Shown here in pieces: positions 573 through 17,136 of a stretch of 53,854 bases of DNA (positions are counted from its first letter, which is position 1; each line of letters opens with the position of its first letter). Both the position numbers and the translations under genes were made by a program. The notes beneath the pieces are model-generated. The model ran no database searches. It was not told the origin of the DNA and saw only the letters and a list, made by a program, of their open reading frames with translations. Origin of the DNA: a virus; the IMG/VR virus record IMGVR_UViG_3300025941_000004; one strand, written 5' to 3'.

Positions 573-574
573 GT

Positions 575-3500
575 TCACTGCCACTGCTTCAGCCTTCCTC
601 GCTCGGACCAGACCCGCTCACGGTGGATGTCCTCTCGACGGATGAAAGGACTCGACGTGTTGATGAACGGGATGTCGTCCCCGAACGGGGCCCGCGCACC
701 GGGTAGTGCGTACATCTTGTTGTACTGGCTGTAGCCGCTGCTGCTGTAGCCGCCACCGCCGTAGCTCCGACGCCCGTAGCCGGAGTAGCGGTGGTACGGG
801 AAGCGGCTGTAGCCGTTGCCGTTGGAGTTCGAGTACGGCTGCTGCGGGGTGTACGTCTTGTTCGCAGCGTCGGCGATGGCCTTCTCGATGGACTTCCCGA
901 TCTCCACATCGGTCGGGATGTAGGAGGACTTGTCGACGAGCTGAAGCGCGCGCAGCCCTGTGTTCATACCGTTGACGAGGTCGGTGGTGTTGAGCAGGGA
1001 GTCGTTGCCGGTGGCCGACTGCTCGGAGACGTACGCCTCTTGGTATGGCTTCAGACCAAACGCGCCGAGCACGCCGGCACGCTTGAAGCCGGTGGCCCAC
1101 GGACGACCGTCGGGGCCCATGACGTAGGTCGTGTTCAGCTGCTTGTAGACCACCGACTTGTCATACGAGATGTCCTTGTGCCAGAGGATGTCTCCGATGC
1201 CGAGGGCGTCGGGGTTGGACAGCGGGCCGTACCAGATGCGCTTCATCCGGGACGTGGCCTTCGTCTGGTCCAGGCCCATGTCGACGCCCTCCTGGATCAG
1301 CTCCTCGGTCCACTCCTTCTGGATCTGCACGCGCATGTCTCGTGGGATGAAGATGCCTTGGAGGCTGTCGTCCCCGATCTTCACCGAGCCCTTGGCGAGG
1401 CCCTGGTAGATGCCGCGGGCGCCTGCCTTGGTCAGCACCTCGTGTCCCTGGGCGTCGAGGACCGACAGCGGCTCGAGCATCTCGGGGTGGTAGTTGGCGC
1501 GGGCGATCTTGTCGGCGTTGTTGTAGACGTTCCAGTTCTTCGACGCCATCGCGTCGCCCTTGATCTTGTAGATCAGCTCGTCCAGGGACAGCGCCTCGGT
1601 CCCGCCGGCTGCCTGTGACAGGGAGCGGACGATGGCCTCGGCCCGCTGCTTGGTCATCGGCTGCTTCTCGATCTCCCGCAGCTTCTCCGGCATCTGCGTG
1701 CGGAAGTAGTCGGGCGTACCGCCTGTCATCTTGGCGAACAGCGACGACATGACGGCCAGGGAGAAGCGGTTCTCGGTGAAGGCGTGGAGTGTGGCCTCGC
1801 TGTCGCTGCGAGTCTGGTAGCCCTGCTTGATCTGCCCTGTCTCGGGGTCGATGTAGGACTCCATCGACAGGTTCTGTGGACGCGGGTTGCCTTCGGCGTC
1901 GCCCTGCAGCTCGCGACTGGCGTTGCGCAGCGGCAGTACGAACGGGTCACGGTCGTACTCGTCGCGTGCCACGTAGATCTGGTTGATGAAGGCGTTCTCG
2001 AACAGCATCTTCTCGTAGACGCCGACAGCGTTGGTGAGGAAGCCTGCTGCGATCGGCATGTTGTGGGCTCCACCGAGCTTCGACTGATCGTCTGCCATCT
2101 GCGCGAGCTCGGCTGCGGTCTGGAACGCGTCGTCCCAGGTGTTGGCGTTGATGAGCGGGAACGCTCCGAGCGCGTCCTCGAACCCCCAGCCGACGTTGCG
2201 GAAGTCGCCGGTCTCGTAGAACTTCTCCATCCCCATGATCGGGGAGATGAACTGCTTCAGCACCCAGTTCAGCTGCACCATCGAGCGGGCACCGCCAGGC
2301 GCCTCGTCGGTGGTAACCCGGAACATGGACGCGATGCCCGGCGGCAGCCAGTCGACGAACATGGCGTCGGCGTTGCGGAAGTCGTTCTCGATGCGACGCG
2401 GGTCGTAGATGACCGGTGCTCCCTGCAGAGCAGCCAGGCGCCGGCGCTTCTTGGTCTCGTCGTCCTCACCGGACAGCCCGAGACCACCGGCCATCATGCC
2501 GAAGGCGAAGAGGCCGGTGTGAGTGAGGCTGCCACGGATGAACGAGCGTGACAGGTCGACGCCTTCCAGGACCGACGACATGTCGAAGGTGGCGTCCATC
2601 TCCGGGTCGAACTGGACGCCGCGGATCTTGGCCGATACTCGACCGAACAGCGAGTTCGGTCCCTTCTTGCGTCCCTCGAGGAACATGGCCGTCATGTCCG
2701 AGAGGCCCTGCAGCCCGAGGATCGTGGTCGCCACGTTGACGGCGTAGCCGCTGAACAGCATCGGCATCTTCAGCACCACGTTGCCGAGGAACGCGAGTCC
2801 CATGTTCGGCGACTCCGACAGCGGCTCGTAGATCCCGCGCAACGTGAGCGACAGCGGTGTCGGCTTCAACGAGCGCAGCTGGGCGACGGAGTTCATCCCG
2901 GCCTCGTGTGCCGTCGGGAAGTTCTGCTTCAAGAACTGCGGGCTGGTGGCCATCTCCGCGATCAGCCGGTCGACGCTGAGCTGGTTCATCGTCGGGGTCG
3001 CCATGATGTGCGACAGCGCAGCCTCCATGTAGCGGCGTGCCAGCGTGTTGGCGCGGGTACCCCACGTCGGGTCCTGCACCTTGGTGCCGAGCTTGGCGTA
3101 GTTCTCAAGCCAACGCTCGGCCTTCCCGACACCGGGCTCGTGCGGGCGCAGGAAGAACAGCTCCTTGTAGACCATCGACTTGAAGTCGTTGCGCTGGCCC
3201 ATCACCGTGTACAGCTTGTTCAGCTTGACCAGCTGGTCCGGGCGGTACGCGGCCTCGAGCCCGAGCCGGGACAGGCCGGCGCCGAGGGTGGTGTCGGCCA
3301 GGCGCTCGGTGAGCCGGGCCTGCCGACCGGCGAGGCCCTTGACCTGGCCCTTCCGTCCAACACTTACCGCGGTGGACTGCATGGTGAGCAGGTTTGCGGT
3401 GCGGTCGAGCACGCCTCGGACGAACTGCTCGGGTCCCATCGAGACGTAGAGCTGAGGGTTGAGCAGCGCGGTACCGACTCGGAGGTTGATGAGGGCGCGG

Positions 3501-6500
3501 TACAGGCCGTTGACGGTGGTGGCCCGGTCGGTGAAGGTTCCGCCGTTCTTCAGGAAGTCCTTCATCGAGACGTCCAGTGGCAGCGGGATCCCGTTCTCCT
3601 TGCGCCACTTGCGTCGTGCGTCACGACGCTTGGCGACCTCGGAGACCGGAGCGGCTTTCGCTACGAGCCGGCCCGATACCCGCTGTCCACCGATCAGGTT
3701 GTCGAGGGATGCGCGCTGCAGGTCGAGGGTCACCGGGTCGGTGGCGATCAGCTGCTGCTCGTCGGAGACCGAGACGAACAGCCGGTTCGTGGTCTCGTCC
3801 ATCAGGTTCTGTGTGACCAGCACGTCCATCGACACCGGCAGGTCGAGGAGGTCGCGGGTGGCCGACTGGTAGGTGTGCATGTACCCGTCGAGGGCGAGCA
3901 GGTACAGCGGGTCGAACAGGTGGTCGGAGGTGAACGCGCCACCGAGCGATGTCTTGACCCACTCGTCCCAGGTCCCGGCCTTGATGTTGTTGTCCTCGAG
4001 CCCGGCCTTCGGCTGCCACTGTGGGGACCGGTGCTGGTTGGCACGGAAGATCGCCTGCAGGTCGTGGACGTGGAGCAGCGGCACCTCGGCTCCGACGACA
4101 GGGAGGTAGTTGTGGTTCACGTTCCAGGCGATGTCCTTGACCGCTTCGATCGCTGCGCTGCCGCTGACCTTACCGACGTCGTCGCCGTTGGCGTCGGTGC
4201 CGTGCGGCATCCCGAGTGTCTGCCGGACCCAGTAGTCGACGAGCTTCACCTGCAGCGGGTCGAGCCCGAGGGTCTGCATGACACTGACCGCGGCGGCGTT
4301 GTACTCGGTGCGCTGTGTAGCGGTCCATCCGTTCTCGTCGAGCTGCTTGATCTCGACCCGATCCTGGATGATGGCGTCACGGGCGAGGTCGATGCGCTCG
4401 GCCTCAGCCGGCGACGCCGCCTTCCAGAAGGATCCGGCGCGACGGTCCTCGAACGGGATGCCGGTCAGCATCCGCCACAGCCCGCCGTCCTCGGTGTCGC
4501 GGGCGTGCGGCTCGATGGTGGTGGAGGAGAACAGCTGGGCCTTCGCCACCTCGTAGGAGTGTGCGGTCAGCGCACCGGTCGCCTGGTAGGCGATGGCAGC
4601 AGAGTGCTGGCTGACGTTCGACCGGGTCGCCTCGTCGAACGACATCCCGTTGATGACGGGGTTGTCCCCGGCGGAGTGGGCCTCGGCGAACTGCAGGACG
4701 CCTACCTGGTTCTTCCTCGGGTCGGCGTGGCGGGACTCGAACCGCCACGACTTAGACATCGAGTAGCCGGTGCCGTCCTGGTTCGGGTTGTAGAACTGGG
4801 AGTTGATCCGCTCGTTGATCTCGTTGCGGAGATCGGAGTCCAGCCCGGAGTTGTCGAAGACCTGGGTGAAAAGAATCGGCATCTCGACCGACTTGTGGTC
4901 GATGCTGCTGGTCCTGTCGTTGAAGCCACCGGACTTCAGCACGTCCCCCACACGAGCACCGGGCGTCATCAGGTAGACGATCATCGAGGTGGCGATCTTC
5001 GCCTCCACCGATGCGGGGTCCGCCATGTTGTCGACCCACGACGGGTCGACTGTCTCGGCGTTGGTGAGGGCGAAGCCGTCGAGCTGGCTGCGCAGGGCCT
5101 CGGTGATCCGCTCGGAGTTGAGGATCTCGTCGGCTGCGGTGACCTGGATCCTCGGAGCCTGGGCTGCGATCAGCTTCAGGAAGTCGACGGCTGTGGTGGC
5201 GTCGACACCGAGGAAGGTGGCGACGTCGTCGGTGAAGTCGATGCCGAGGAACTTGAACGCCGACTGGTGGTCGACGATCATCCCGTCGGTCGACTCCTTG
5301 CTCATGGCGTCATCGAGGCTGCCGACGCCGTCGATGTCCCAGTTGGTGAGGAAGCCGTGCTCCTTGCCCTGGTAGGTGGGGAACTGGATGCGGTCGGGAC
5401 GGGCGGTGAGCTCGTACTTCTGCCCGTTCCACTCCAGGACCTTCTTGTCACCGAGAACCTGTAGGTCGATCTCGAGCCGGACGGACAGGCCGTAGTTGGA
5501 GCGCGGGTTGAACTCCACGACGGTCCCTGTGTGGGATGTAGCGTTCGGGTTGCGGGTCGAGGAGAACACGGCCATGTTCGCCGGCTCGTGCTTGGCGGGC
5601 CGGGTGACGCGCTTCTGTGTCATCACCTTGTCCCAGTCCGGCGCCTCGTGTCCGTGCCGGTACAGCAGCACGGTGTCGCCGGGTCCGACCAGCGGGATCA
5701 TGTCCCCGGTGCCGAAGTCGTCTCCGGCCTGGGGCAGGACGGAGCCGGCGTGCAGCTCGAGCCGGTCGATCATCCGGTCGAAGTAGAAGTCGAACTCGGT
5801 ATCGAGGTGGGCACGCTCGGCGGGTGTGAGCTTCTTGCCCTGCTCGGTCTCGGGACCGTGCGCCATGTCACGCAGCATCTGTCGGCCCTCGGGGTCGTTC
5901 TTGAAGCCGAGCACCTGGTTGCGGACCCGTGTGATCTGGGTCTTGTGGATCCGGTCGTCGGTCATCTCGTCGACCGGGACGTTGAACCCGGCCAGGTAGT
6001 TGGTCGGCACCAGGTTCAGGGTCTCCGCGATGGCGTGCAGACGCGGGTTCTTGAAGTCGACCCACAGCGAGCCTTCTTCGACGTTGAGCCCCTGGACGTT
6101 GAAGATCGCCAGGTGCGAACGGGGTGACACGCCACGAGTGGCGGTGAGCGAGGAGATCAGGGCCCGCTGGTTCTGGAACCGGGGTGTGGTGATCGCAGGC
6201 TGGTAGACGTGTCCCGAGCCGGCCATCCTGATGTAGTCGATGGACTCCATGAACTGGGTGGCCTCGACACGCATGTCAGCCTCACCGTCGGTGGCACCGA
6301 GGACGATGGTGGCACCCTGGTCCGCGATGTAGTCCAGACGCTCCCGCATCTTCGCGGCGTTACCACGGAACGAGTCGAGCTCGACGACGACCAGGTCGCC
6401 GGGTGCGATCCGCTTCGCACCCGAGGACGTGGACAGGGTGACCCCGGAGATCAGCCCTGCGTTCGCGTCGGACGCCTGGTCCTCGCGGAAGATCCAGCCG

Positions 6501-9500
6501 GACCGGCTGCCCTTGACCTCGAGTGCCGCCTCGAGCTCGTGGAGCAGCATCTTGGACAGCTCCATGTCCTTGTTCTTGCGGGAGCCGAAGAACGGCAGCC
6601 CGCCTGCCGTCCAGTCCATCGAGATGTTCTCGGCACGCAGCATCAGGTCCGCTGTCTGCAACGCACGACCCAGGTTGGTGCGCGGGTTCCAGCCGCCCTC
6701 ACCGGTCTGTCCGTTGTAGTTGGCGCGGTCGTCCCAGATCTCCTCGCGCTTCTCGGCGAGGTACCTGATCTTCGCCTCGTAGGCGTTGCGGGTCTTCTCG
6801 TCGAGGTAGGCACGGGTCTGCAGCGTCTGCTGCCGGGCACGGTTGGCGATCCTGGTCTCCGGCAACGGCTTCGACTCGCCGTTCAGCCCGTGCTTGAAGT
6901 TCTCCAGCATCTTGGTCGACACGCCCCGGTACGCGGGGACCTGGGACAGGTCGGCGGACAGCACGTCGTCGAAGACGCGGGTGGCACCCTGGGTGCCCTG
7001 CTCACCGAGCATCGAGTTCAGCACCGTGTCGGAGGGCATGTACAGCTTGGCGTCGTCGATGGGGAGCGCGACACCGGGGTTGGCCTGCTGCCAGGCGATC
7101 ACCTGCTCGGCGGTCCACACGAGCCGGTCGCCTGTGCCCTGTGCCTTGCCGACCACCAGGTGCTGAAGCTTCATGTCCTTGTAGACGGCGTTGTAGAACT
7201 CCGGCTCGAGCATCCCCTTCGAGCCCTTCTCGGGGTCACCGAGACCGAGCTGCTTGGTCAGCATCTCCTGGGTCTTCATCCGCAGCACATGGGACAGGTC
7301 GGTGGCCCAGTCGTTCTCGATGGCCTTGCGCTCGGCGTGGGTCATCGTCTCGATGACCTCGATGGCGGAGCGTCCGAGCTTCGAGGCGTCCAGGCCCCAC
7401 GCCTGCATCACCGGGTTGATGGAGCCTTCGGTGAACCAGAGCGTGGCGTTCAGGGACTCGGCCCGATCCGAGTCACGCTTGAAGCTGGTGCCCTCGAAGA
7501 ACAGGTTGTTGTACCAGGTGCGGCCCTTGTCGGACTCCTCCTGGGTCTCGACCGGCTGCATGTCGGGATGGAAGAACTCGATGTCAATGCCGGCCACGTC
7601 ACTCGGGTCGACACCGGAGGCTTCGAGCGCGACCTTCAGCCGGTCCAGGTGGATCTCCTTGTAGCCGGAGGCCACCGCGTTGTCGTTGGTGTGGAAGACG
7701 TGGCCGAGGTTCAGGTCCGAGGCCAGCAGGTCGATGGGTGTCGCGTCGAGGTAGGTTCCCGGCTGGTAGTGGCGCAGCATCACGCGGGCAGCGAAGCGGT
7801 TGTTCAGCTGTGCCAGTGGTCGCGCGACCGCACGGTCACCGGGATGGGTCACCTCGACGTCGTCGAACAGCGACCTGTTCAGGTCGCTGGCCTGCAGCGT
7901 GACCTTCGACAGCAGCTCGGCACCCGGTACCCGGAAGGTGCGCCTGGTGGCAGCCGACTTCGCTGCCTGACGCTTCGGCGCGTTGCCGGTCATCCCGATC
8001 ACCGGCTTTGCGGCGGCGGAGTCGAGCCGCTGGTTGGCCTCGATGGAGGCTCGTGGGATGTCCCCGGTCCACGGGCCGTACCGGAAGTCGGGGTACAGGT
8101 TCAGCTCGATGGTCTTCTTCAGCTCGGTCGGGCTGGGCGGGATGTCACCCTGCAGCCCGGCCCACCTGTGCATGTCCCGACCGGCCAGCAGCAGCGGCTT
8201 CGTCGGGTCCAGCAGCGTGTCGGCCAGGTAGGCGTACGACGTGTCGTAGTAGCGGGTGTTGTCGGGCCTGGTCGCGTCCGGGTACGGGGAGACCGAGATG
8301 CCACCGGAGCCCATCGACACGATGTCGTCGAGGAACACGGTGATGGTGGCACGCGACAGGTGGTTCCACTCCGAAGCCGACAGGTCCACCTGCCCGGAAC
8401 GGGACTTGTCCTCGAGCTGGCCGGACAGCTTCATCATGATCTGGATGGTGGACTGCGACTTCCGGCGGAACTTGTCCGGCGCGGACATGATGTACTGGAT
8501 GATCTCCCGCTGACGGTCGGTCTCGGTCAACGGATCGGAGTGGAAGGAGAACATGTCGACGGCCTGGCCGGCTGGGTCGTCGGAGCGCAGCAGCTCGACA
8601 CGGGCCTCGAACTTTTCAAGGTCGGCACGGGCGCCCAACGTCTCACGCTCGATCTTCTCGACCTCGTGGATGTCCAGGCCGGGCACGAGCTTCGCCTCGA
8701 TCTGGGTGATCTCGTCGTTCATCTCCCCGCGACGCTGTGCCACCAGCTGGTCCAGGGCAAGATCGGTGTAGGCGAACCGCGCGGCTGCCTCCTTGACGTC
8801 CTCACCGGGCCGGGCACCGAAGCCCAGCAGCCCTGCGGTGCGCTGGATCCGGCGTGCCGCATGAACCTCGGACATCACCTGCTTCAAGGTGGCGTCCCCG
8901 GTGCCGTCGGGGACCGAGGCGATGGCCGCGGCGTCCTGCACGATCTTCGCCACCGTGCGGAACGCCCGCTGCGCGGCACGCTCGATCTCGGAGGTGGACA
9001 GCGTGTGGTTCGCACCACTGGTCTCCGCGATCACGATGTCGTTGACGATCCGCTGCACCGAGAAGTGGCCCTTGTGGTTACGGGCGGTGGCTTCCAGCAT
9101 CGCGCAGTAACGCATCGCGGAGTCGTTGTCGATGCTGTTGTCGTGGGCGAACATCTTCTTGTAGTGGTCGCCCTCGAGCAGCGACTTCAGGTCCTTGCCG
9201 ACCAGCATCTGGGTGGTGAGCCTGCCTTCTGGGCCACGCTCCATCACCTGCGGGAACAGCACGGACCTGGCCATCGGCCTGGTGTCGGGGTTGGAGAACA
9301 GCGCCAGCGCCTTGGCCACCGACTCTGCTGTCGGGTTGCCCTCGGAGTCGACCGGCATCTCCCACTCGACCTGGCGTCCGTCGTCGTCCATCGTGACGAC
9401 GCCGTCCTTGGCGAGCTGCGACATGTTGCCGCTGATCGCGTCGAGGTTCACCGCCGTCATGGACGCCTTGAACCGCTCGTAGTTCGTGACGTAGTCGTAG

Positions 9501-12500
9501 GCGTCGCGCTGTGCGTCGAACGCACCAGCCGGGTCCACGTTGTCGGGGTTCTCGCCCTTGGTGTGGGCCTTCGGGTAGAACCCGCGGACCGCTCCGATGA
9601 CCTGGTACATCATCGCCTGCGGCCCGAGCCCCACGTTCATCTCGCGGGAGTTCTTCAGCGACGCCACGAACGCGTCGTAGAGCCTGCGGTCCTCGGTGGT
9701 GGCCGTGACATTGGGTGCGCCGGCGTCGGACTTCAGGACCCGCTCGATGGCGAGGTACACCTGGTTGTCGGACCGCTGGATGTTCTGCTCCTCGACCAGG
9801 TCCTTCTTCAGGTACTGGGCCCCGACCTCGAGGGAGGCGATCGCCTCACGCTGGGTCACGCCCTTCATGCCGGTCGACCAGCCACCGTTCGCCTTGTCCG
9901 CATCGAAGGCGGCGGAGTCGTCGTACCAGCCGACGATGGGTGCCTGGTTGCCACGGATCCCCGGCGTGGTGTTCACCCAGCGGAGGAACTGCTCCAGGTT
10001 CTTGGCGTTCTGGAGCTCGTGCATGAACTTCGTCATCAGCAGCCCGCCGTCTTGCTGCATCTGCGGAGACAGGTCGTACATGATCTTGAACATGCGGCGC
10101 TCGAGCTTGTTGTACCGGCGACCCTGGTGACCGTCCGCATCCTTCTCGGTACGGGCGTGCATGCCCAGTGACTCCCACTGGGCCAGCATCACGTTGCGCC
10201 AGTAGTGCATCTCCGCCTCGTCGGCGTTGGTGATGGTGAACATCTTGTAGACCCAGTTGGCGATGTACAGGTCGTCACCGCGACGCTCGAAGACGGCGTT
10301 CGCGGCGGCGTCCGGGATCAGCGCCATCACCTTCTCCGCGAACGTCGGGTTCTGGTCCAGCATCCGCTGCACCATGTCGAGGGTGAGCTCGTCGACACGA
10401 CGCCCGGACAGCTCGGAGAACTTGAACAGCGCCTCCCGGACATCCTTGTGCGAGTTCTTGAACGCCTCCGAGGCCCGGTAGTGCGCATCGGAGAACTCGC
10501 CGTTCAGGTGGTGCGCGTTGTAGTCGTTGCCGGTAGCGATCTTCTTGTCGAGGGTGATGCGGTTGTGGCCCACCGAGATGATCGAGTCGATGACGCTGCG
10601 GTACGGGGACACGTCGCCGGCTGCGACCTCGGCCACCGAGTACGGCATGTTTGCCGCCGACTCGCGTCCCAGGTAGGCGGCCTCGTTCTTCAGCTTGTAG
10701 TCCTCGGACTTCCGCTCGCCCTCGTCCTTGGCGGTGTAGAACCTGACGTACTGCTCCACACTGATGTGGGGTCCCATCAGTCCGGCTGCGTCACCGATCA
10801 GCGTGAACAGCTGGAACGCTCCGAACACCTCGACGAACGCCCGCTGCGCGTTCAGGCCGGAGCCCTTGACGCCCTGGCCGTCGGGCTTCGTCATCGCCCG
10901 CAGCCGGGCGTGCTTGGCCTGCAGCTCCGGTGAGATCTCGAAGATCGCGTCCTTGGCGACACGGTCCCGGCGCAGCTCCTGCTTCAGCAGCATCTGCGCC
11001 AACGTGATCTCACGTCCGGTGGTCGTCACGTTGCCGTCGGAGTCGATGTCGTAGTCGAGGACCGCGACGTTCGCCACCACCGCCATCGCCTGGGTCTGCG
11101 ACAGCGCCGGATCCAGGTCGGTGGCGTTGTCCGCGAGCGCCTTCAGCTGGGCGATCACCCGTGCCGTGATCTCGTCTACCCCATGCACCCGGTCCAGCTC
11201 GGACTGGGTCGCCATAGCCGACAGCAGCTCGTACTCGGAGGCGAGCGCATACAGCTCGGCACGCTGCGTCGGGTTCGCGGACGACTGCACGGAGGCGGAC
11301 AGGGAGGTGTAGTGGAGCTTCTGGAACTTGCGGAACATCAGGTCGCCGGCCAGCCAGTTCCCGATGGTCTGACCGGTGGTGGCGGACCGTGCGGCCCGGC
11401 GCTCCCGTGCCTCGGACACACGCTTCACCGGGCGGCCCTTCTTCACGGTCCCCGGTGTCGGGCCGAGCATCGCCCGGTAGGAGGCGTAGTCCTCCTGGAA
11501 CGCCTGGAACTGGGCCCGCACCAGCTGGTCCATCCACAGCCACTCGTTGCTCAGGTTGCCCCTGGCGAACGTGTTGATCGGACCGTCGGCCACCTCGAGC
11601 AGCCCGTCCATCAGGACGCTGCGGGCGTCACCGTCACCGGTACGCACCGCAGCGAAGAACTTGGCGAACACCGGATCGAGGATCTCGTCACCGATGATCG
11701 CCTCATACCGGTTGCGGATCGCCTCGGTGACCGACGTCATCGCACCCGTGGCGGCGTTCACCAGCGCCGGCTCCGTGGACGTCAACGCCTCCTGGATGTA
11801 CTGCACCACCCACTTCTCGTACTTCGGGGCCTTCACGTTCACGCTGGTGCCGGCCCCGAGGAAATGCATACCAGCACGAGCCGACACAAACATGTCCTCG
11901 TCCAGCAGCAGCTGGTTCTGGGTCCTGATCTTGTCGCCGTCGTAGTCGCCGCGGATCGCCGGAAGGATCGCGTGGCTGATCTCCAGGACGTTGTCGGAGT
12001 TCGACACCGTCAGCTTCAGTGACGCCTGCGGCACCAGCACCTGGTAGGAGCCCGACTGGTCCTGCGGGTCCCTGGTCACCACCTGGGACACGGCGCGCGC
12101 CAACGCCATCCGCTCCTCGTCGGTGGTCACCGGGACACCGTTCACATCACCGGCACGCCGGTTGAACGCGTCCCGGAGGAACTGGTTCAGCCCCTCGGTC
12201 TCCGCCGCACGGGCCGCAACCGAGGCGTTCGGGTCGTACATGCGACCCACCCGGTCGTCGATCTCGGCACCCAACGCCTGACCCAGCCGGATCATCTCGT
12301 TGATCTGCTTGGTCTGCTGCTGGATCTTCGCCAGGTCGTTCTGCAGCCCCTCGTCGGCGGGCTTCTTGTCGAGGTCGGCCTGCTTCAGCACCTCGTTGTT
12401 CTTCAGCAGCGTCAGCTGCTCGGTGATACCACGCATCCGGTTGCCGAAGTTCCGCATCAGCTGGGCACCGGAGGAGACCACCGCATCGGAGGGGACGCTG

Positions 12501-14770
12501 CCGCGCAGCAGCTGCCCGTTCGCATCGACCTGGCCGGCATCCTCGATCTGGGTGATGACGAACGGCTGGTCGGTGTGCGGCGCGGAGTTCTTCAACGACT
12601 CCGACCTGGACGTGTTGATCGCGTCGACCACCTTGTTCACGCCTGCGACACCTGCGGTGAAGTCCGCAGCCCGGTCGTCGGCGTACTTGGTGAACGCAGC
12701 CTTCGCGGTCTCCCGCTCAAGCTTCCCCATCTGCGCCTTCGCACGCTTCTCCGTCGGCGTCATCGACGCCAACGCCTCATCGGAGAGCACCTCGCCACCG
12801 GTCTGGAAGTAGTGAGCGATCTTCACCTGACCGTCCAGCTTCTCGTCCGCCGTCGGGGAGTGGGCGTTGATGCCCAGACCCATCCCGACACCACCGGCAG
12901 CCCCGTAGAGCCCCGAGTTCACCATGTCCTGCATGCTGCCCACGCCGTGACCGTGGGAGTACGACTCGAGCGCAGACTGGATCACCTCCTCGGTGCCCTC
13001 GCCGAACCCGTTCACCAGCGCCGTGGTGAACCGCCGCTCACCCTGGGCCATCGACTGTGCGGCCCGGTAGAAGTCGTCGGCCTTCAACGCACCCTGGCCG
13101 ACCTCCTTCCCGCGCAACGCGATCACCCGCGTGCTCAGACTCGAGATCGCCTCGGACGGAGCCAGCAGGGAGATCGTGCGGTACCTCTTGCCGACCACCT
13201 GCCCGACATCGTCGGTGATGTACCGGTAGCCCGACTCGATCTCCTCCTTGCCGCCGGCCTCGAGCGCAGCCTTCTGCGCCGCAGTCCTTCCACCGGCCCA
13301 CGTCGGCAGCACATCACGGGCCACCGCCCTACCCGAGACAGCCGTACCGAGAGTGCCTACGGCTCCCGGTGCGGCGCCCATCTGGCTGAGCCCCGCAGCC
13401 TCACGACCAGCCCACGACTTCGTCAACAGCCCTCTGGCGAGACCGATCTGCGCCACATCGACACCGATCTTCGCAATCCCAGCCGCACCCTGGGACGGGC
13501 TGAAGTGCCCCGCCTCGTCCTTGAAGACGTTGTCGAACCCGCCCTTGTTGTAGTCGAACTGGGAGCCACCGGTCAGCGCCAGCTCCGCCGTCTCCCCTGC
13601 GACAGTGGAACCCATCTGTGCCATGTACAGCCCGCGACCGATCGGGGACGCGAACTGCAGCGCACCGTCACCGAGCGCAGCACCGACATCGGCCACCTTC
13701 ACCCACGCCGGCGTCGTCGACTTCCCGGACTTGTCGGTCCGGTAGAACGCCGACTCGCCATCACCCACATCACCCTGGGACCAGTCGTACAGCCCCTGCT
13801 CGGTGTTCTGCAGCGGGGAGATCAACCGGCCCGCGAAACCACCCCACTGCTGGACACCGGTCGAGATCCCGGCACCGGAGCCGTACTGGTCCGTGGACAG
13901 CGCCGTGATCTCGTACGCCCTCGCAGCCTGCTCCGTCAGACTGTCCTTGTTCAGGAACGCGCCGACGCCACCGACCAGCGCACCGATGCCGGCACCCACC
14001 GGGGCACCCACCGCAGCACCCACACCGAAGAACGTCGAGCCAATCGCCGCACCGACACCTGTACCCAACGCCGCGCCACCCGCGGCACCACCCAGGATGA
14101 TCGCCTCATCGGTCGTTCCCTCCTCGAACTGGTGCGCCGTGTCCTTCACGTCCGCGTTGAACTCCATCGCCTTCAGCTGCTGCGGGATCTCGACGTTGTC
14201 CTTCTCCCGCTGCGCCTGAACCTCACGACCCAGGTGCTGCAACGGGTCGGAGGCCGAGAACGCGTGCGCCTTCTGGTCCTTGCTCAACGTCCACGTGGAC
14301 ATCGCAAGGTTCGCGGTGTTCTCGTCGAACCCGCCGTCCTTCTTGTCGTACATGTTGGCGACCTTGTCGCCGTTGACGTAGACATCCCCGTACTTGAACT
14401 GCGTCCCATCGGTACCTGTGTGATCCCAGGTGACGATTCCCGTCGCATGCTCCTGCTCGAAGTACGTGTTCGCCGTCCCCTCCTCCAACGCCTTGTTCCA
14501 CTTGGACATGTAGTCACTCACGAACTGGTTGTCATACCCGTTGTTCGTGCCGTCGAAGTTCGCACCCGTGTACCAGGACTGCGCTGCACCCGTGTACCCG
14601 ATCTCCGGGTCCGTCACCCACGCACCCAGCTTGGACGAGTCGTACATCGGGACGCCGGCGGCCACACCACCACCGGCCCGCGCAGCCTGCTGCATCCCCT
14701 CGGGGGCAGCAGGGTTCTGAGACTGACCCAGCCACGGCTGCAACGCACTCGAGTCGTACTTGCCCACCAC
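575..14770 (-). CDS. Giant virion-operon protein (4,731 aa) with RNA-polymerase-like two-barrel motifs, an N-terminal glycine-zipper segment and C-terminal hydrophobic segments
   Basis: Uninterrupted 14,196-nt ORF in the track. GTG start at 14770 (or 14767) follows GAGGAG. G/C-rich third positions throughout. It sits between the membrane/collagen genes and the portal gene in one co-directional operon. Confidence 0.85.
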   Translation of the reverse strand: MVGKYDSSALQPWLGQSQNPAAPEGMQQAARAGGGVAAGVPMYDSSKLGAWVTDPEIGYTGAAQSWYTGANFDGTNNGYDNQFVSDYMSKWNKALEEGTANTYFEQEHATGIVTWDHTGTDGTQFKYGDVYVNGDKVANMYDKKDGGFDENTANLAMSTWTLSKDQKAHAFSASDPLQHLGREVQAQREKDNVEIPQQLKAMEFNADVKDTAHQFEEGTTDEAIILGGAAGGAALGTGVGAAIGSTFFGVGAAVGAPVGAGIGALVGGVGAFLNKDSLTEQAARAYEITALSTDQYGSGAGISTGVQQWGGFAGRLISPLQNTEQGLYDWSQGDVGDGESAFYRTDKSGKSTTPAWVKVADVGAALGDGALQFASPIGRGLYMAQMGSTVAGETAELALTGGSQFDYNKGGFDNVFKDEAGHFSPSQGAAGIAKIGVDVAQIGLARGLLTKSWAGREAAGLSQMGAAPGAVGTLGTAVSGRAVARDVLPTWAGGRTAAQKAALEAGGKEEIESGYRYITDDVGQVVGKRYRTISLLAPSEAISSLSTRVIALRGKEVGQGALKADDFYRAAQSMAQGERRFTTALVNGFGEGTEEVIQSALESYSHGHGVGSMQDMVNSGLYGAAGGVGMGLGINAHSPTADEKLDGQVKIAHYFQTGGEVLSDEALASMTPTEKRAKAQMGKLERETAKAAFTKYADDRAADFTAGVAGVNKVVDAINTSRSESLKNSAPHTDQPFVITQIEDAGQVDANGQLLRGSVPSDAVVSSGAQLMRNFGNRMRGITEQLTLLKNNEVLKQADLDKKPADEGLQNDLAKIQQQTKQINEMIRLGQALGAEIDDRVGRMYDPNASVAARAAETEGLNQFLRDAFNRRAGDVNGVPVTTDEERMALARAVSQVVTRDPQDQSGSYQVLVPQASLKLTVSNSDNVLEISHAILPAIRGDYDGDKIRTQNQLLLDEDMFVSARAGMHFLGAGTSVNVKAPKYEKWVVQYIQEALTSTEPALVNAATGAMTSVTEAIRNRYEAIIGDEILDPVFAKFFAAVRTGDGDARSVLMDGLLEVADGPINTFARGNLSNEWLWMDQLVRAQFQAFQEDYASYRAMLGPTPGTVKKGRPVKRVSEARERRAARSATTGQTIGNWLAGDLMFRKFQKLHYTSLSASVQSSANPTQRAELYALASEYELLSAMATQSELDRVHGVDEITARVIAQLKALADNATDLDPALSQTQAMAVVANVAVLDYDIDSDGNVTTTGREITLAQMLLKQELRRDRVAKDAIFEISPELQAKHARLRAMTKPDGQGVKGSGLNAQRAFVEVFGAFQLFTLIGDAAGLMGPHISVEQYVRFYTAKDEGERKSEDYKLKNEAAYLGRESAANMPYSVAEVAAGDVSPYRSVIDSIISVGHNRITLDKKIATGNDYNAHHLNGEFSDAHYRASEAFKNSHKDVREALFKFSELSGRRVDELTLDMVQRMLDQNPTFAEKVMALIPDAAANAVFERRGDDLYIANWVYKMFTITNADEAEMHYWRNVMLAQWESLGMHARTEKDADGHQGRRYNKLERRMFKIMYDLSPQMQQDGGLLMTKFMHELQNAKNLEQFLRWVNTTPGIRGNQAPIVGWYDDSAAFDADKANGGWSTGMKGVTQREAIASLEVGAQYLKKDLVEEQNIQRSDNQVYLAIERVLKSDAGAPNVTATTEDRRLYDAFVASLKNSREMNVGLGPQAMMYQVIGAVRGFYPKAHTKGENPDNVDPAGAFDAQRDAYDYVTNYERFKASMTAVNLDAISGNMSQLAKDGVVTMDDDGRQVEWEMPVDSEGNPTAESVAKALALFSNPDTRPMARSVLFPQVMERGPEGRLTTQMLVGKDLKSLLEGDHYKKMFAHDNSIDNDSAMRYCAMLEATARNHKGHFSVQRIVNDIVIAETSGANHTLSTSEIERAAQRAFRTVAKIVQDAAAIASVPDGTGDATLKQVMSEVHAARRIQRTAGLLGFGARPGEDVKEAAARFAYTDLALDQLVAQRRGEMNDEITQIEAKLVPGLDIHEVEKIERETLGARADLEKFEARVELLRSDDPAGQAVDMFSFHSDPLTETDRQREIIQYIMSAPDKFRRKSQSTIQIMMKLSGQLEDKSRSGQVDLSASEWNHLSRATITVFLDDIVSMGSGGISVSPYPDATRPDNTRYYDTSYAYLADTLLDPTKPLLLAGRDMHRWAGLQGDIPPSPTELKKTIELNLYPDFRYGPWTGDIPRASIEANQRLDSAAAKPVIGMTGNAPKRQAAKSAATRRTFRVPGAELLSKVTLQASDLNRSLFDDVEVTHPGDRAVARPLAQLNNRFAARVMLRHYQPGTYLDATPIDLLASDLNLGHVFHTNDNAVASGYKEIHLDRLKVALEASGVDPSDVAGIDIEFFHPDMQPVETQEESDKGRTWYNNLFFEGTSFKRDSDRAESLNATLWFTEGSINPVMQAWGLDASKLGRSAIEVIETMTHAERKAIENDWATDLSHVLRMKTQEMLTKQLGLGDPEKGSKGMLEPEFYNAVYKDMKLQHLVVGKAQGTGDRLVWTAEQVIAWQQANPGVALPIDDAKLYMPSDTVLNSMLGEQGTQGATRVFDDVLSADLSQVPAYRGVSTKMLENFKHGLNGESKPLPETRIANRARQQTLQTRAYLDEKTRNAYEAKIRYLAEKREEIWDDRANYNGQTGEGGWNPRTNLGRALQTADLMLRAENISMDWTAGGLPFFGSRKNKDMELSKMLLHELEAALEVKGSRSGWIFREDQASDANAGLISGVTLSTSSGAKRIAPGDLVVVELDSFRGNAAKMRERLDYIADQGATIVLGATDGEADMRVEATQFMESIDYIRMAGSGHVYQPAITTPRFQNQRALISSLTATRGVSPRSHLAIFNVQGLNVEEGSLWVDFKNPRLHAIAETLNLVPTNYLAGFNVPVDEMTDDRIHKTQITRVRNQVLGFKNDPEGRQMLRDMAHGPETEQGKKLTPAERAHLDTEFDFYFDRMIDRLELHAGSVLPQAGDDFGTGDMIPLVGPGDTVLLYRHGHEAPDWDKVMTQKRVTRPAKHEPANMAVFSSTRNPNATSHTGTVVEFNPRSNYGLSVRLEIDLQVLGDKKVLEWNGQKYELTARPDRIQFPTYQGKEHGFLTNWDIDGVGSLDDAMSKESTDGMIVDHQSAFKFLGIDFTDDVATFLGVDATTAVDFLKLIAAQAPRIQVTAADEILNSERITEALRSQLDGFALTNAETVDPSWVDNMADPASVEAKIATSMIVYLMTPGARVGDVLKSGGFNDRTSSIDHKSVEMPILFTQVFDNSGLDSDLRNEINERINSQFYNPNQDGTGYSMSKSWRFESRHADPRKNQVGVLQFAEAHSAGDNPVINGMSFDEATRSNVSQHSAAIAYQATGALTAHSYEVAKAQLFSSTTIEPHARDTEDGGLWRMLTGIPFEDRRAGSFWKAASPAEAERIDLARDAIIQDRVEIKQLDENGWTATQRTEYNAAAVSVMQTLGLDPLQVKLVDYWVRQTLGMPHGTDANGDDVGKVSGSAAIEAVKDIAWNVNHNYLPVVGAEVPLLHVHDLQAIFRANQHRSPQWQPKAGLEDNNIKAGTWDEWVKTSLGGAFTSDHLFDPLYLLALDGYMHTYQSATRDLLDLPVSMDVLVTQNLMDETTNRLFVSVSDEQQLIATDPVTLDLQRASLDNLIGGQRVSGRLVAKAAPVSEVAKRRDARRKWRKENGIPLPLDVSMKDFLKNGGTFTDRATTVNGLYRALINLRVGTALLNPQLYVSMGPEQFVRGVLDRTANLLTMQSTAVSVGRKGQVKGLAGRQARLTERLADTTLGAGLSRLGLEAAYRPDQLVKLNKLYTVMGQRNDFKSMVYKELFFLRPHEPGVGKAERWLENYAKLGTKVQDPTWGTRANTLARRYMEAALSHIMATPTMNQLSVDRLIAEMATSPQFLKQNFPTAHEAGMNSVAQLRSLKPTPLSLTLRGIYEPLSESPNMGLAFLGNVVLKMPMLFSGYAVNVATTILGLQGLSDMTAMFLEGRKKGPNSLFGRVSAKIRGVQFDPEMDATFDMSSVLEGVDLSRSFIRGSLTHTGLFAFGMMAGGLGLSGEDDETKKRRRLAALQGAPVIYDPRRIENDFRNADAMFVDWLPPGIASMFRVTTDEAPGGARSMVQLNWVLKQFISPIMGMEKFYETGDFRNVGWGFEDALGAFPLINANTWDDAFQTAAELAQMADDQSKLGGAHNMPIAAGFLTNAVGVYEKMLFENAFINQIYVARDEYDRDPFVLPLRNASRELQGDAEGNPRPQNLSMESYIDPETGQIKQGYQTRSDSEATLHAFTENRFSLAVMSSLFAKMTGGTPDYFRTQMPEKLREIEKQPMTKQRAEAIVRSLSQAAGGTEALSLDELIYKIKGDAMASKNWNVYNNADKIARANYHPEMLEPLSVLDAQGHEVLTKAGARGIYQGLAKGSVKIGDDSLQGIFIPRDMRVQIQKEWTEELIQEGVDMGLDQTKATSRMKRIWYGPLSNPDALGIGDILWHKDISYDKSVVYKQLNTTYVMGPDGRPWATGFKRAGVLGAFGLKPYQEAYVSEQSATGNDSLLNTTDLVNGMNTGLRALQLVDKSSYIPTDVEIGKSIEKAIADAANKTYTPQQPYSNSNGNGYSRFPYHRYSGYGRRSYGGGGYSSSGYSQYNKMYALPGARAPFGDDIPFINTSSPFIRREDIHRERVWSERGRLKQWQ
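710..850 (-). other. Tyr/Gly/Ser/Arg-rich low-complexity C-terminal tail of the giant protein
   Basis: Translation NGNGYSRFPYHRYSGYGRRSYGGGGYSSSGYSQYNKMY. The plus strand shows gtagcc/gtagct repeats. Confidence 0.8.
2468..2812 (-). other. C-terminal hydrophobic (possible membrane-inserting) segments of the giant protein
   Basis: GLFAFGMMAGGLGLSG followed by EDDETKKRRR (2468-2515). MGLAFLGNVVLKMPMLFSGYAVNVATTILGLQGL (about 2700-2812). Confidence 0.55.
11891..12088 (-). other. Beta-prime-like barrel segment with DYDGD motif (codons 11933-11947, residues 942-946)
   Basis: VVTRDPQDQSGSYQVLVPQ...NVLEISHAILPAIRGDYDGDKI parallels bacterial beta-prime LNRAPTLHRLGIQAF...[21 protein letters not shown]. 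Reverse complement of 11933-11947 checked as GAC TAC GAC GGC GAC. Confidence 0.6.
13151..13192 (-). other. Beta-subunit-like basic loop GKRYRTISLLAPSE (residues 527-540)
   Basis: Resembles beta-barrel [17 protein letters not shown] (G, basic pair, I-S, then P and E at the same offsets). Short match only. Confidence 0.35.
13952..14101 (-). other. Glycine-zipper / Ala-Gly-rich hydrophobic segment of the giant protein (residues about 224-273)
   Basis: ILGGAAGGAALGTGVGAAIGSTFFGVGAAVGAPVGAGIGALVGGVGAF. Confidence 0.7.
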
Positions 14771-15557: not shown

Positions 15558-15740
15558 GCGCTCAGCCTCCCACCTACACGGCTCTCACGGCTCACCCGCA
15601 GGAGCCCAGGCCGTCACAAGGCTTCCAGCCCTCTCCTGGTGTCGCACAAGCGTCGAAGCTCGAAGGCGATTCCGTCGAAACCCCAAACTCCGTGCATCTG
15701 GAGCTGCATCTGGAACACGGGAAAAGTTTGCGGGAGGTTC

Positions 15741-15900
15741 CAATATAAACAACATAAACAAAAGAAACAATCTATTCCCCCTTATTATATATATATATGG
15801 GTATTAGGATCCATTTGGAATGTAATAAGTGAAACATTTGTTTCGTTTGGTTGATTTCTTTTTGGTTGGTTATCACAGTGGTAACTGATGTCTCATGTGA
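15741..15900. promoter_or_regulatory. AT-rich island with phased A-tracts and a (TA)6 run. Candidate divergent promoter region, DNA-unwinding element or genome end.
   Basis: My hand count gives 48 G+C in 160 nt (about 30%) in an otherwise GC-rich genome. ATAAACAA-like units at 15744, 15754 and 15764 (10-bp phase). TATATATATATAT at 15786-15798. Confidence 0.5.
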
Positions 15901-15913
15901 CTTAGGAGTCAAC

Positions 15914-16147
15914 ATGGATTTTGGAGATGCGCTCAAGGCTAGCGTTATCGCTGGCATGGATCCCATGAATGGGATGATGCGCTCGCTGATGGCGTCGACT
16001 ATTCGTGAGAAGTCGGTTGTTGTCGATGGTCAGGTCATGGACAACATGGATCGGTTGCGTAAGGCAATCGAGGAGATGAAGTCTGCTGGTTCGGACCAGA
16101 AGATCATCGACGCTTATCAGCGTATGCTGGACAACTACACGAAGTAG
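15914..16147 (+). CDS. Hypothetical Met-rich small protein (77 aa), low-GC gene
   Basis: AGGAG at 15904-15908, ATG at 15914. Translation MDFGDALKASVIAGMDPMNGMMRSLMAS... Confidence 0.6.
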   Translation: MDFGDALKASVIAGMDPMNGMMRSLMASTIREKSVVVDGQVMDNMDRLRKAIEEMKSAGSDQKIIDAYQRMLDNYTK

Positions 16148-16161
16148 TTGGGATCGAGTGT

Positions 16162-16198
16162 GGCTTCCAGCTTATGCTGGGAGTCATGCTCTTTTTTT
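16162..16198 (+). terminator. Candidate terminator after the 77-aa gene
   Basis: 10-bp stem (two G-U pairs) GGCTTCCAGC-TTAT-GCTGGGAGTC. A T7 run at 16192-16198 lies 6 nt downstream. Confidence 0.4.
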
Positions 16199-16223
16199 CA
16201 CAATGCGTATGCGTTGATGAGAA

Positions 16224-16243
16224 GACACAACATGACACAACAT
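16224..16243. repeat. Tandem direct repeat GACACAACAT x2
   Basis: Read directly at 16224-16233 and 16234-16243. Confidence 0.9.
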
Positions 16244-16346
16244 ACTTTCACCTAGTCTCGTGACGTTTGCGCCCAGGCTACTGGGCGAGGGATTGTCACA
16301 AGACAAGGTGTGCATGCGCAATGTGGTTGTTAGAGCATGACGGATT

Positions 16347-16408
16347 TTATGACACAGTCATAATGTGGTTTGCCACGCTCGATCATATTCTTATCGCAAT
16401 GCATTGCG
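16347..16408. promoter_or_regulatory. Two perfect palindromes in the non-coding leader: TTATGAC-ACA-GTCATAA (16347-16363) and CGCAATGCATTGCG (16395-16408)
   Basis: Read directly. A related CAATGCG-TAT-GCGTTG lies at 16201-16216. Confidence 0.6.
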
Positions 16409-17128: not shown

Positions 17129-17136
17129 CACCACTT

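Follow-up and report, generated by a model that had tools for sequence, protein, structure and literature searches.

A giant minus-strand ORF, whose 4,731-aa product was read from the ORF list and its translation, carries at residues ~735-1100 what sequence conservation and structure prediction together identify as a beta'-type double-psi beta-barrel module. We regard this barrel as real because its motif is invariant, because profile and hhalign searches match it to RNA polymerase (RNAP) beta' sequences, and because AlphaFold2 and Foldseek assign it the corresponding fold. The protein probably belongs to a putative new family of virion-delivered RNAPs of the two-barrel type, and this actinobacterial podophage probably delivers a polymerase of its own into the host by injection. 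One barrel only is demonstrated, and the two-barrel character of the protein is what we infer from it. A polymerase core in the giant protein is absent from the published descriptions of the corresponding gene in Burro and in the phages of clusters EK and EM. The features discussed below are collected in Table 1, in which all positions refer to the window, i.e. the whole stretch of 53,854 nucleotides that was analyzed (IMG/VR record IMGVR_UViG_3300025941_000004).

Table 1. Features of the giant ORF and its product, in order from the N-terminus
Feature	Position (nt)	Strand	Residues	Remarks
Giant ORF	575..14770	-	1-4731	4,731 aa; orthologue of the ~13-kb gene of Microbacterium/Arthrobacter podophages (Burro gp27, cluster EK gp31-33)
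Glycine-zipper, membrane-like hydrophobic segment	13955..14158	-	~205-272	ILGGAAGGAALGTGVGAAIGSTFFGVGAAVGAPVGAGIGALVGGVGAF
Helical domain	12569..13963	-	270-734	includes the 520-540 loop, invariant PSE (538-540) and GEGxEExxQ (590-598)
Predicted beta'-type double-psi beta-barrel (DPBB-A)	11921..12568	-	~735-950	AlphaFold2 and Foldseek
R-x-P...G/S-x-Q-x3-P strand motif	12026..12073	-	R900 to Q915	RDPQDQSGSYQVLVPQ; counterpart of beta' NRAPTLHRLGIQAFEP
DYDGD metal-binding loop	11933..11947	-	942-946	D942, D944, D946; codons read directly
Helical region after the barrel	11471..11920	-	951-1100	pLDDT ~90 up to 1099; near-invariant R965 and G967
F-R1147-x-F-Q1150-x-L-H-Y1154 motif	11309..11335	-	1146-1154	
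Candidate beta-type element (weak)	5231..5743	-	3010-3180	conservation and hhalign
Basic C-terminal tail	578..673	-	4700-4731	...RRxxxRRERxWSERGRLKQWQ; adjoins the portal gene start

The giant protein family and its genomic setting

The GC content of the giant ORF by codon position (0.63/0.43/0.90) is usual for real genes in this genome, which is complete and syntenic over its whole length with that of Microbacterium phage Burro. Arrays of GTGTAGACACC occur as repeated motifs in the DNA of this phage. The portal homologue begins at nt 578 and crosses the circular junction, and the giant gene lies upstream of the portal gene both here and in Burro. Word-indexed searches with the giant protein returned only one to three relatives, even with the alignment as query, and it took an exhaustive HMMER search to recover 167 homologues, whose length is 4,400-4,900 aa in nearly every case; counted at 50% identity, the family in public data consists of 167 clusters. 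The closest relative comes from an uncultured IMG/VR contig (83% identity), while most members share 25-47% identity with the giant protein. Conservation was scored in an alignment of the query with 115 homologues of >4,300 aa (n = 116; identity 25-47%). A tblastn search of phage records recovered Burro, Araxxi, Arete, the EK phages, and MissAmericana, and blastn of the giant-ORF region against phage records gave no DNA match. Burro gp27 could be aligned along its full length at 31% identity (residues 271-4491). With full-length homology, a length in the ~4,400-4,900 aa range, a gene directly upstream of the portal, and a podophage genome of ~54 kb, the protein belongs to the Burro gp27-like family, and the proteins of Burro (gp27), cluster EK (gp31-33), cluster EM, and Arthrobacter phage MissAmericana share its size and gene position in syntenic genomes.

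In Burro and the Microbacterium podophages of clusters EK and EM, a quarter of the genome is occupied by this ~13-kb gene, which has been described as one of the largest viral genes and has been a puzzle since 2020 that was still called 'elusive' in 2026. Published accounts give it no function, report no similarity to the N4 virion RNAP (vRNAP), and say that its function 'remains elusive' (PMC7302621, PMC8281081, PMC13069448). Our own searches with the giant protein alone against Pfam, PHROGs, and PDB sequences gave nothing relevant, and when 21 and 18 family members were scanned singly against Pfam there was no RNAP match, nor was there one in PHROGs. Across all sizeable ORFs of the genome, Pfam and PHROGs scans detected neither a T7-type RNAP nor any further two-barrel RNAP or sigma gene, so that at this sensitivity the preliminary description was right to see no further polymerase or sigma-like gene.

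Residues 1-200 (nt 14171-14770) constitute a conserved N-terminal domain that is divided from the remainder of the giant protein by the glycine-zipper segment, which has weak Pfam matches to DUF6861 and, in two family members, to Gly-zipper_Omp; two transmembrane domains are predicted close to the N-terminus of Burro gp27 (Jacobs-Sera 2020, PMC7302621). At the other end, no block of the alignment is better conserved than the C-terminal tail (mean top-residue frequency 0.74), in which R4719, R4726, and L4727 are present in 100% of the 116 sequences.

In some RefSeq records the homologues from Araxxi, Arete, and MissAmericana are annotated as 'tape measure protein', and the giant protein is comparable in size to the tape measure protein of phage P23-45. 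That the giant protein is a tape measure, or has a purely structural role in the tail, with DxDGD as a chance motif, is nevertheless extremely improbable. The cultured relatives are podoviruses with tails <10 nm, for which no tape measure similarity has been reported (PMC8281081, PMC13069448), and the giant gene precedes the portal gene, unlike a tape measure gene, whose neighbors are the tail assembly chaperones on one side and the distal tail genes on the other. We rejected the annotation on these two grounds, morphology and gene position. Moreover, there was no match to tape measure families in Pfam or PHROGs, and the supposed chance motif is invariant and placed in a predicted beta'-type fold.

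The predicted beta'-type catalytic barrel

The segment first noticed in the giant ORF, residues 897-948, agrees exactly with both the translation and the codons, including its DYDGD loop (nt 11947-11933). D942, D944, G945, and D946 are invariant in 116/116 aligned giant proteins, and a D-[FYHW]-D-G-D pattern occurs in essentially all family members covering the site. Because a bare D.DGD could arise by chance in ~8% of proteins of such length (our own estimate), it is the conservation of the motif that constitutes the evidence. The upstream R-x-P strand is similarly constrained, with R900 and P902 at 100%, S908 at 97%, P914 at 91%, and G907 at 87% (n = 116). R900, P902, G907/S908, Q910, and P914 align without gaps to R425-P427...G433...Q435...P439 of E. 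coli beta' (rpoC), and the beta' order of elements that had been read from the sequence, R-x-P, then P, then DxDGD, is co-linear, gaplessly so up to P439 and by hhalign over residues 896-966.

Profile searches pointed to the same place. Against PDB sequences, the top match of the family profile was gp55, a beta' fragment of the phiKZ non-virion RNAP (E 5e-4), in an alignment that spans R-x-P...DFDGD and pairs the strand motif with 'fhRnPtlqrGS.q'; AR9 beta' and a cyanobacterial gamma subunit ranked after it. When hhalign windows were slid along the protein against rpoC, the sole outlier was residues 896-966 versus E. coli beta' 421-482 (score 40, P 3e-4), while every other window of the 4,731 residues scored ≤24.

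The AlphaFold2 model places barrel strands at residues 735-741, 763-766, 896-899, 909-916, 928-931, and 947-950, with a coiled-coil insertion at residues 768-869 (nt 12164-12469) and a pLDDT of ~90 over residues 739-1099. All of the top 50 Foldseek matches in the PDB were RNAP beta' chains, with a probability of ~1. The corresponding TM-scores were low (~0.15) because the domains are poorly packed in the 1,200-residue model (pTM 0.41). In BFVD, matches outside the family were mostly RPB1/beta' homologues of giant viruses, poxviruses, and jumbo phages. The D-x-D-G-D spacing also agrees with RNAPs and not with the archaeal PolD motif, C-D-G-D-E-D, in a structure-based alignment (PMC10770324 supplement). 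Thus, with an invariant motif, the phiKZ gp55 match, and 50/50 beta' chains in Foldseek, the beta'-type active-site barrel put forward in the preliminary description is borne out, at the level of alignment and predicted fold.

The Foldseek alignments to beta' chains were co-linear over 900-1,060 columns at TM-scores of 0.15, which suggests that, in the model, similarity to beta' reaches beyond the barrel itself. Where a bridge helix and trigger loop would follow DPBB-A, helices are present with no specific match. Residues 1104-1198 were modeled as helices at a pLDDT of <50 and contain the FRxFQxLHY motif, in which R1147 is conserved in 100%, Q1150 in 86%, and Y1154 in 91% of the 116 sequences; a bridge-helix-like role for this motif is only a guess.

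Searches for a second barrel

A basic loop of beta type had been proposed at residues 520-540, and with it a single-chain layout like that of QDE-1 and phi14:2 gp66, in which a beta-like barrel bearing this loop would lie ~400 residues N-terminal to the beta'-like one. The residue numbers given for K528 and R529 were correct, but the sequence concerned, DDVGQVVGKRYRTISLLAPSE, spans nt 13151-13213 rather than 13151-13192. In all characterized single-chain two-barrel RNAPs the beta-like barrel does come first (PMC10770324), and column 530 of our alignment is R or K in 97/116 sequences (Y in this phage), with a hydrophobic stretch and then an invariant P538-S539-E540 after it (n = 116), an arrangement reminiscent of beta. 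In addition, the second-best hhalign window against beta profiles was residues 596-633 versus beta 1093-1129, although its score of 22.7 is within the noise. The two basic residues themselves lack conservation: S or A predominates in column 528, with K in 15/116, and column 529 has R in 29/116 and K in 14/116, and within residues 270-890 there is no invariant basic residue. AlphaFold2 modeled residues 270-745 (476 residues) as all-helical with two small hairpins (pLDDT 75.5, pTM 0.69), the motif region 580-605 being a helix, and a Foldseek search of the PDB with this model found nothing better than E ~1 and no polymerase. With unconserved residues and a helical domain that matches no polymerase, the beta-type loop at 520-540 was rejected. 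Because the loop is unsupported, the QDE-1/gp66 layout is unsupported as well; helices make up the modeled N-terminal flank, comparing the family with the phi14:2 gp66 sequence by hhalign gave no signal, and neither 2J7N (QDE-1) nor 6VR4 (gp66) was among the top 50 Foldseek matches of the barrel model. Of the two facing barrels envisaged, structure prediction returned the beta' one and none at the site named for its partner, and we consider this exact model quite unlikely.

A beta-type barrel was not found elsewhere in the chain by any profile or fold search. A full-length profile of 12 sequences gave only beta'-type matches against PDB sequences and no beta-type barrel, and only noise came back when sliding hhalign windows were compared with 80 gammaproteobacterial rpoB sequences as a profile, whether the insertion specific to the E. 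coli lineage was kept or removed, and also under greedy alignment. The invariant Lys-Gly pair K1738-G1739 was considered as the 'K-G' strand of beta and dropped, since E-N-P-D follows it in place of a strand and no alignment supports it.

One weak and statistically insecure candidate for a beta-type element did emerge from sequence comparison, at residues ~3010-3180 and ~2,170 residues downstream of DYDGD. It comprises GDxIPL...LYRHGxKxP (3022-3045), GDK3109-x6-G3116-x-K3118 (nt 5417-5452), P3131, and S3157-K3158 (nt 5297-5302), so that GDK-x6-G-x-K and then SK follow one another within residues 3107-3158. Its basic residues are strongly conserved (K3109 in 113/116, K3118 in 114/116, K3158 in 113/116, R3038 in 112/116), as is G3116 (104/116). 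Against a profile of bacterial and jumbo-phage beta C-terminal regions, hhalign pairs K3109 with K1065, G3116 with G1071, K3118 with K1073, P3131 with P1086, and SK3158 with SR1106 (beta numbering). Window 3101-3178 ranked first of 75 once Staphylococcus (one sequence) and jumbo phages (11 beta subunits) were represented in the target profile, with a score of 23.5, reversed-sequence controls reaching ≤18.5; its single-comparison E of 0.038 falls short of significance by the usual standards. A profile of the 3010-3180 region matched no RNAP among PDB sequences or in Pfam. By crude secondary-structure propensity, residues 3000-3200 are compatible with a beta/coil-rich domain, a method that is too inaccurate to serve as evidence, as its calibration recovered only 34/90 AlphaFold2 strand residues.

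Given that just one barrel is demonstrable, we also considered whether it might be a lone beta'-derived barrel with some other role, whether another kind of nucleotidyl transfer (RNA-templated synthesis, priming, or nucleotide signaling), an enzyme completed by a second barrel borrowed from another protein, or a structural relic in an ejection protein. The remaining parts of the 4,731 residues hold no recognizable domain in Pfam, PHROGs, PDB-sequence, and profile searches, and the phage encodes its own primase, helicase, and DNA polymerase, which already cover its nucleic-acid enzymology; both points favor such a reading. On the other hand, even between very divergent sequences the glycine, all three aspartates, and the RxP strand never vary, which argues for catalysis and against a relic, and the same Pfam and PHROGs scans revealed no separate beta-subunit-like gene in the genome. 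All known proteins with a D-x-D-G-D loop in a double-psi barrel fold are template-dependent nucleic acid polymerases. We hold a lone barrel with another role to be unlikely.

Comparison with known polymerases and a proposed role

The giant protein shares the R-x-P...G-x-Q-x3-P...D-x-D-G-D frame with beta'/RPB1 subunits, including the split beta' of phiKZ (gp55) and AR9, which supplied its best profile and fold matches. It differs from them in that the barrel is embedded in a protein of 4,731 residues and similarity is undetectable beyond ~100-400 residues. In contrast to multisubunit RNAPs, it has no recognizable partners of beta, alpha, or omega type, nor is there a match at the Pfam level. 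The crAss-like phage protein phi14:2 gp66 and Neurospora QDE-1 each consist of a single chain and share this catalytic loop, which in QDE-1 also reads DYDGD, and gp66, which is large and packaged in the virion, transcribes early genes. In both, a second barrel and a connector of ~140 residues lie N-terminal to the catalytic barrel, whereas the same region of the giant protein is predicted to be helical.

P23-45 gp96 offers a precedent for both discovery and biology, as this virion protein of 5,002 aa was recognized as a two-barrel RNAP through a conserved DFDGD and no other detectable similarity. However, P23-45 is a long-tailed siphovirus in which gp96 serves as the tape measure and carries its polymerase in the N-terminal 1,200 residues, whereas here the phage is of podovirus type and the barrel begins at ~735, after the membrane-like segment; unlike P23-45, this phage also has no gene for a non-virion polymerase detectable by Pfam and PHROGs. 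The N4-like vRNAP of the Schitoviridae (~3,500 aa), packaged in the capsid and ejected by a podovirus, is a functional analogue. Its fold is that of a T7-like, right-hand, single-subunit enzyme, unrelated to double-psi barrels, and the giant protein showed no right-hand T7-type polymerase domain in Pfam, PHROGs, or PDB-sequence searches, its Foldseek matches being beta' and not T7-like.

We think it fairly probable that the product of the giant ORF is a multi-domain ejection protein with a catalytic module related to beta'/RPB1 of two-barrel RNAPs, which would be packaged, ejected, and then transcribe the first phage genes. Burro gp27 was found to be virion-associated by SDS-PAGE and is apparently processed to ~250 kDa (PMC7302621). 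By analogy with Burro, the giant protein would be packaged in the capsid beside the portal and ejected into a Gram-positive host, where its glycine-zipper N-terminal part may help it to cross the envelope. The polymerase module would then transcribe the first phage genes without the host RNA polymerase, as crAss-like gp66, P23-45 gp96, and N4 vRNAP do. The basic residues of the active site would be supplied by another part of the same chain, for which the best candidate is ~3010-3180 and not 520-540. The literature searched contained no activity, transcript, or rifampicin data for any phage of the group.

A more specific form of this proposal, possible but doubtful in our judgment, is that of a permuted and stretched single-chain RNAP. 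Here the beta'-like module (~735-1100 and beyond) would come first and the beta-like element (~3010-3180) >2,000 residues downstream, the two being brought together by folding or after proteolysis in the capsid. A podovirus would eject such an enzyme into a Gram-positive cell, where the whole of early transcription would fall to it, and it would define a new and widespread family of virion RNAPs. If beta-type residues do sit ~2,000 residues downstream, the architecture would be without precedent, and the permuted reading, if true, would explain the largest gene in actinobacteriophages.

For the ejection protein with a beta'-related module, which remains our preferred reading, the consequences are broader. 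The conserved beta'-type catalytic barrel gives the ~13-kb gene a concrete, testable function, and the existence of cultivable relatives, namely Burro, Akoni, and Araxxi, makes the polymerase idea directly testable. The protein would be the third independent two-barrel RNAP concealed in a giant virion protein, after crAss-like gp66 and P23-45 gp96, and would provide a very divergent branch for studies of the evolution of two-barrel polymerases. It would also extend the strategy of polymerase injection to phages of Gram-positive Actinobacteria.

The giant gene in its genome and family

The window begins and ends with the same 127 nt, which indicates a circular (terminally overlapping) assembly and a complete genome of ~53.7 kb. 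Pfam and PHROGs searches identified a set of replication genes (family A DNA polymerase, helicase, primase, primase/polymerase, exonuclease, and ssDNA-binding protein) together with genes encoding an AAA ATPase, the large terminase, an M23 peptidase, and structural proteins. The genome is syntenic, gene for gene, with Microbacterium phage Burro, to which the terminase is 71%, the putative capsid protein 76%, the portal 52-61%, and the giant protein 31% identical. The giant ORF (4,731 codons) has a codon-position GC of 0.63/0.43/0.90, the pattern of genuine genes in this genome of 62-66% GC, and stands immediately upstream of the adjoining portal gene. The latter crosses the circular junction, and thus the listed ORF at 52302-53831 is only its C-terminal part. 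Judging from the identities to Burro, the giant protein is evolving much faster than its capsid and terminase neighbors, with its catalytic-motif residues absolutely fixed. No T7-type polymerase, other two-barrel polymerase, or sigma factor turned up when all sizeable ORFs, as well as the small ones of the low-GC region, were scanned against PHROGs and Pfam, in agreement with the preliminary description, which had seen no other RNA polymerase (RNAP) or sigma gene.

A word-indexed protein search for relatives of the giant protein returned almost nothing. An exhaustive HMMER search with residues 450-1500 against 1.84 billion cluster representatives (E ≤1e-3) yielded a family of 167 proteins, nearly all of 4,400-4,900 residues, whose cultured members come from podophages: Burro, the Microbacterium EM and EK clusters, and Arthrobacter phage MissAmericana. 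The giant gene of these phages, at >13 kb and 25% of the genome, is the largest in any actinobacteriophage; in Burro its product is virion-associated, with a ~250 kDa band that implies processing, and it was reported to lack similarity to the N4 vRNAP and described as having an unknown role (PMC7302621; PMC8281081). A March 2026 paper states that its function "remains elusive" (PMC13069448), and no paper found in the literature searched assigns it a polymerase role. The tape-measure annotation of the homologues in Araxxi (NC_048801), Arete (NC_048860), and MissAmericana (PQ184795) has probably been propagated in error on the basis of protein size.

Coordinates of features in the window and in the giant protein
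Feature	Position (nt)	Residues	Remarks
Identical ends	1-127; 53728-53854
Giant gene	575-14770 (-)
Glycine-zipper hydrophobic segment	13955-14158	205-272	weak matches to DUF6861 and Gly-zipper_Omp
DYDGD loop	11947-11933	942-946
Candidate second-barrel element		3010-3180	GDxIPL...LYR3038-H-G3040; ...YGLSVRLEIDLQVLG-D-K3109-KVLEWN-G3116-Q-K3118-YELT...P3131; ...S3157-K3158
C-terminal 32 residues	578-673	4700-4731	...PFIRREDIHRERVWSERGRLKQWQ; most conserved block of the whole family
Portal gene, across the junction	578 to 3; 53852 to 52359	1-191; 151-659	residues numbered in the portal protein
First GTGTAGACACC cluster	16496-16716
Second GTGTAGACACC cluster	38820-39056
Low-GC region	~15600-18650		~3 kb at 55% GC versus 62-67% elsewhere
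Inverted repeat, 75-nt arms	16497-16571; 16641-16715		in low-GC region
20-nt hairpin	18233-18276		in low-GC region

A conserved beta'-type catalytic barrel

The preliminary description proposed that a DYDGD loop in the giant protein is the metal loop of a beta'-type barrel, and residues 897-948 read exactly as quoted there. By our own estimate, a bare D.DGD has an ~8% chance of occurring in a protein this long, so the pentapeptide is not rare and the case hangs on conservation and fold. We therefore aligned the query with 115 homologues of >4,300 aa (116 proteins in all, with identities to the query mostly of 25-47%). Across this set, D942, D944, G945, and D946 show 100% conservation, and the residue between the first two aspartates is F, Y, H, or W. 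R900 and P902 are likewise 100% conserved, while S908 (97%), P914 (91%), R965 (92%), and G967 (98%) are near-invariant. The segment R900-D-P-x4-G-S-x-Q-x3-P914 aligns without gaps to R425-A-P-x4-L-G-x-Q-x3-P439 of E. coli beta'. The spacing of the three aspartates is that of RNA polymerases rather than of the archaeal PolD motif (structure-based alignment, PMC10770324 supplement).

When a 21-sequence family profile was compared to PDB sequences, the top match was gp55, the N-terminal beta' fragment of the phiKZ nvRNAP (7OGP; E 5e-4), with an alignment covering R-x-P to DFDGD; AR9 beta' came next. A full-length 12-sequence profile matched only beta'-type chains (phiKZ gp55 and a cyanobacterial gamma subunit). 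As 300-residue windows of the family alignment were slid against an rpoC profile with hhalign, residues 896-966 stood out as the equivalent of beta' 421-482 (score 40, P 3e-4), all other windows along the protein scoring ≤24 against rpoC and rpoB alike. In an AlphaFold2 model of residues 270-1469, pLDDT is ~90 over 739-1099, and the strands around DYDGD fit a double-psi barrel into which a coiled coil (768-869) is inserted. In Foldseek searches of PDB with this model, all of the top 50 matches were RNAP beta' chains (E 6e-5 to 2e-3, probability ~1). In BFVD, the first three matches were from its own family (Burro, Truong, and TinyTimothy), followed mostly by RPB1/beta' homologues of giant viruses, poxviruses, nudiviruses, and jumbo phages. 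The TM-scores are low (~0.15) because the domains of this long model are poorly placed relative to each other (pTM 0.41), and hence the fold assignment is to be taken as local. With four independent tests in agreement (PDB profile, sliding hhalign, AlphaFold2, and Foldseek), we consider the predicted beta'-type barrel to be real and the original interpretation of the aspartate loop to be correct and well supported.

The search for a second barrel

A beta-type basic loop had also been proposed N-terminal to the aspartate loop, in a beta-then-beta' layout like that of QDE-1 or gp66 of the crAss-like phage phi14:2. For this segment, DDVGQVVGKRYRTISLLAPSE, the numbering of K528/R529 was correct, but residues 520-540 correspond to 13151-13213, the reported end of 13192 being 21 nt short. 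Neither residue is conserved: most of the 116 proteins have S or A in column 528, and only 43 have R or K in column 529. Column 530, a Y in this phage, is the only one of the three that is mostly basic (R or K in 97/116), and P538-S539-E540, farther along, is invariant. No invariant basic residue occurs in this alignment within residues 270-890. Modeled separately with AlphaFold2, residues 270-745 are predicted to form a helical domain that has two short hairpins (pLDDT 75.5, pTM 0.69), and Foldseek found only generic helical-bundle matches for it (E >1). An hhalign comparison to beta profiles gave a weak match, slightly downstream of the proposed loop, of 596-633 to beta 1093-1129 (scores 21-23, within noise), and this segment is a helix in the AlphaFold2 model. 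The proposed beta-type loop, and with it the QDE-1/gp66 layout, in which the beta-like barrel comes first, is thus not supported for this protein. Neither enzyme was among its top Foldseek matches, and hhalign of the family against the gp66 sequence was empty.

A survey of the lysines that are invariant in the family pointed instead to residues 3010-3180, where K3109 (113/116), K3118 (114/116), K3158 (113/116), R3038 (112/116), and G3116 (104/116) are conserved. This region resembles ...VKVYLAVKRRIQPGDK1065MAGRHGNK1073...PSR1106MN of beta, whose K1065, K1073, and R1106 are active-site residues. It is also like the pattern "K-G-strand-P" that a published structure-based alignment of the beta-type double-psi barrel shows for the beta4 strand. 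Against a profile of beta C-terminal regions from bacteria, with 11 more from jumbo phages, window 3101-3178 ranked first of 75 (hhalign score 23.5; E 0.038 for the single comparison), pairing K3109 with K1065, G3116 with G1071, K3118 with K1073, P3131 with P1086, and S-K3158 with S-R1106. Reversed-sequence controls reached at most 18.5 (mean 13.2, standard deviation 2.2), whereas the forward windows averaged 15.7 (standard deviation 2.9), among which 23.5 is not significant. Searches of PDB sequences and Pfam with a profile of the region retrieved no polymerase. We therefore regard residues 3010-3180 as a candidate beta-type element, a lead from sequence comparison rather than a result.

A putative virion-delivered polymerase

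The giant protein thus contains a conserved beta'-type catalytic barrel and has a virion-borne homologue. Its glycine-zipper segment, suggestive of the membrane-inserting part of an ejection protein, is preceded by a conserved N-terminal domain (G69, G111, and G128 invariant; D129, G134, and N139 each 98%). Its C-terminal block (R4719, R4726, and L4727 invariant; G4725, W4730, and Q4731 99%) terminates right at the portal start codon and is possibly a packaging or portal-docking signal.

There are 17 copies of GTGTAGACACC (≤1 mismatch) versus 1.1 expected, 15 of which lie in two intergenic clusters. In each cluster, plus-strand tandem copies, spaced by 12 nt in the second, face inverted minus-strand copies 100-130 nt away. 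The first cluster lies between the giant-gene operon, which runs leftward, and the rightward replication genes, at their point of divergence; the second adjoins the M23 peptidase gene. The core motif is absent from Burro; in the 83%-identical uncultured IMG/VR relative, it is clustered ~1.8 kb upstream of the giant gene (6572-6901 of its DNA, L001). These arrays may act as operators, iterons, or phage-polymerase promoters. The low-GC region contains several inverted repeats and only short ORFs having neither codon-position GC bias nor Pfam matches, and may be an early or regulatory region, or an origin.

We envision that the giant protein would be packaged near the portal, perhaps with the aid of its basic C-terminal tail, which is extremely conserved, and ejected upon infection, with the N-terminal domain and glycine-zipper segment contributing to passage through the envelope. 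The polymerase module may then transcribe early genes, as in crAss-like phages and P23-45, with the GTGTAGACACC arrays at the two divergent intergenic regions as candidate regulatory or promoter sites. N4 likewise uses a virion polymerase for early transcription, but one of unrelated fold. The giant proteins of these actinobacterial podophages are best seen as a new, very divergent family in which a probable virion-delivered RNAP of the two-barrel type is embedded, and this probable virion RNAP is experimentally tractable.
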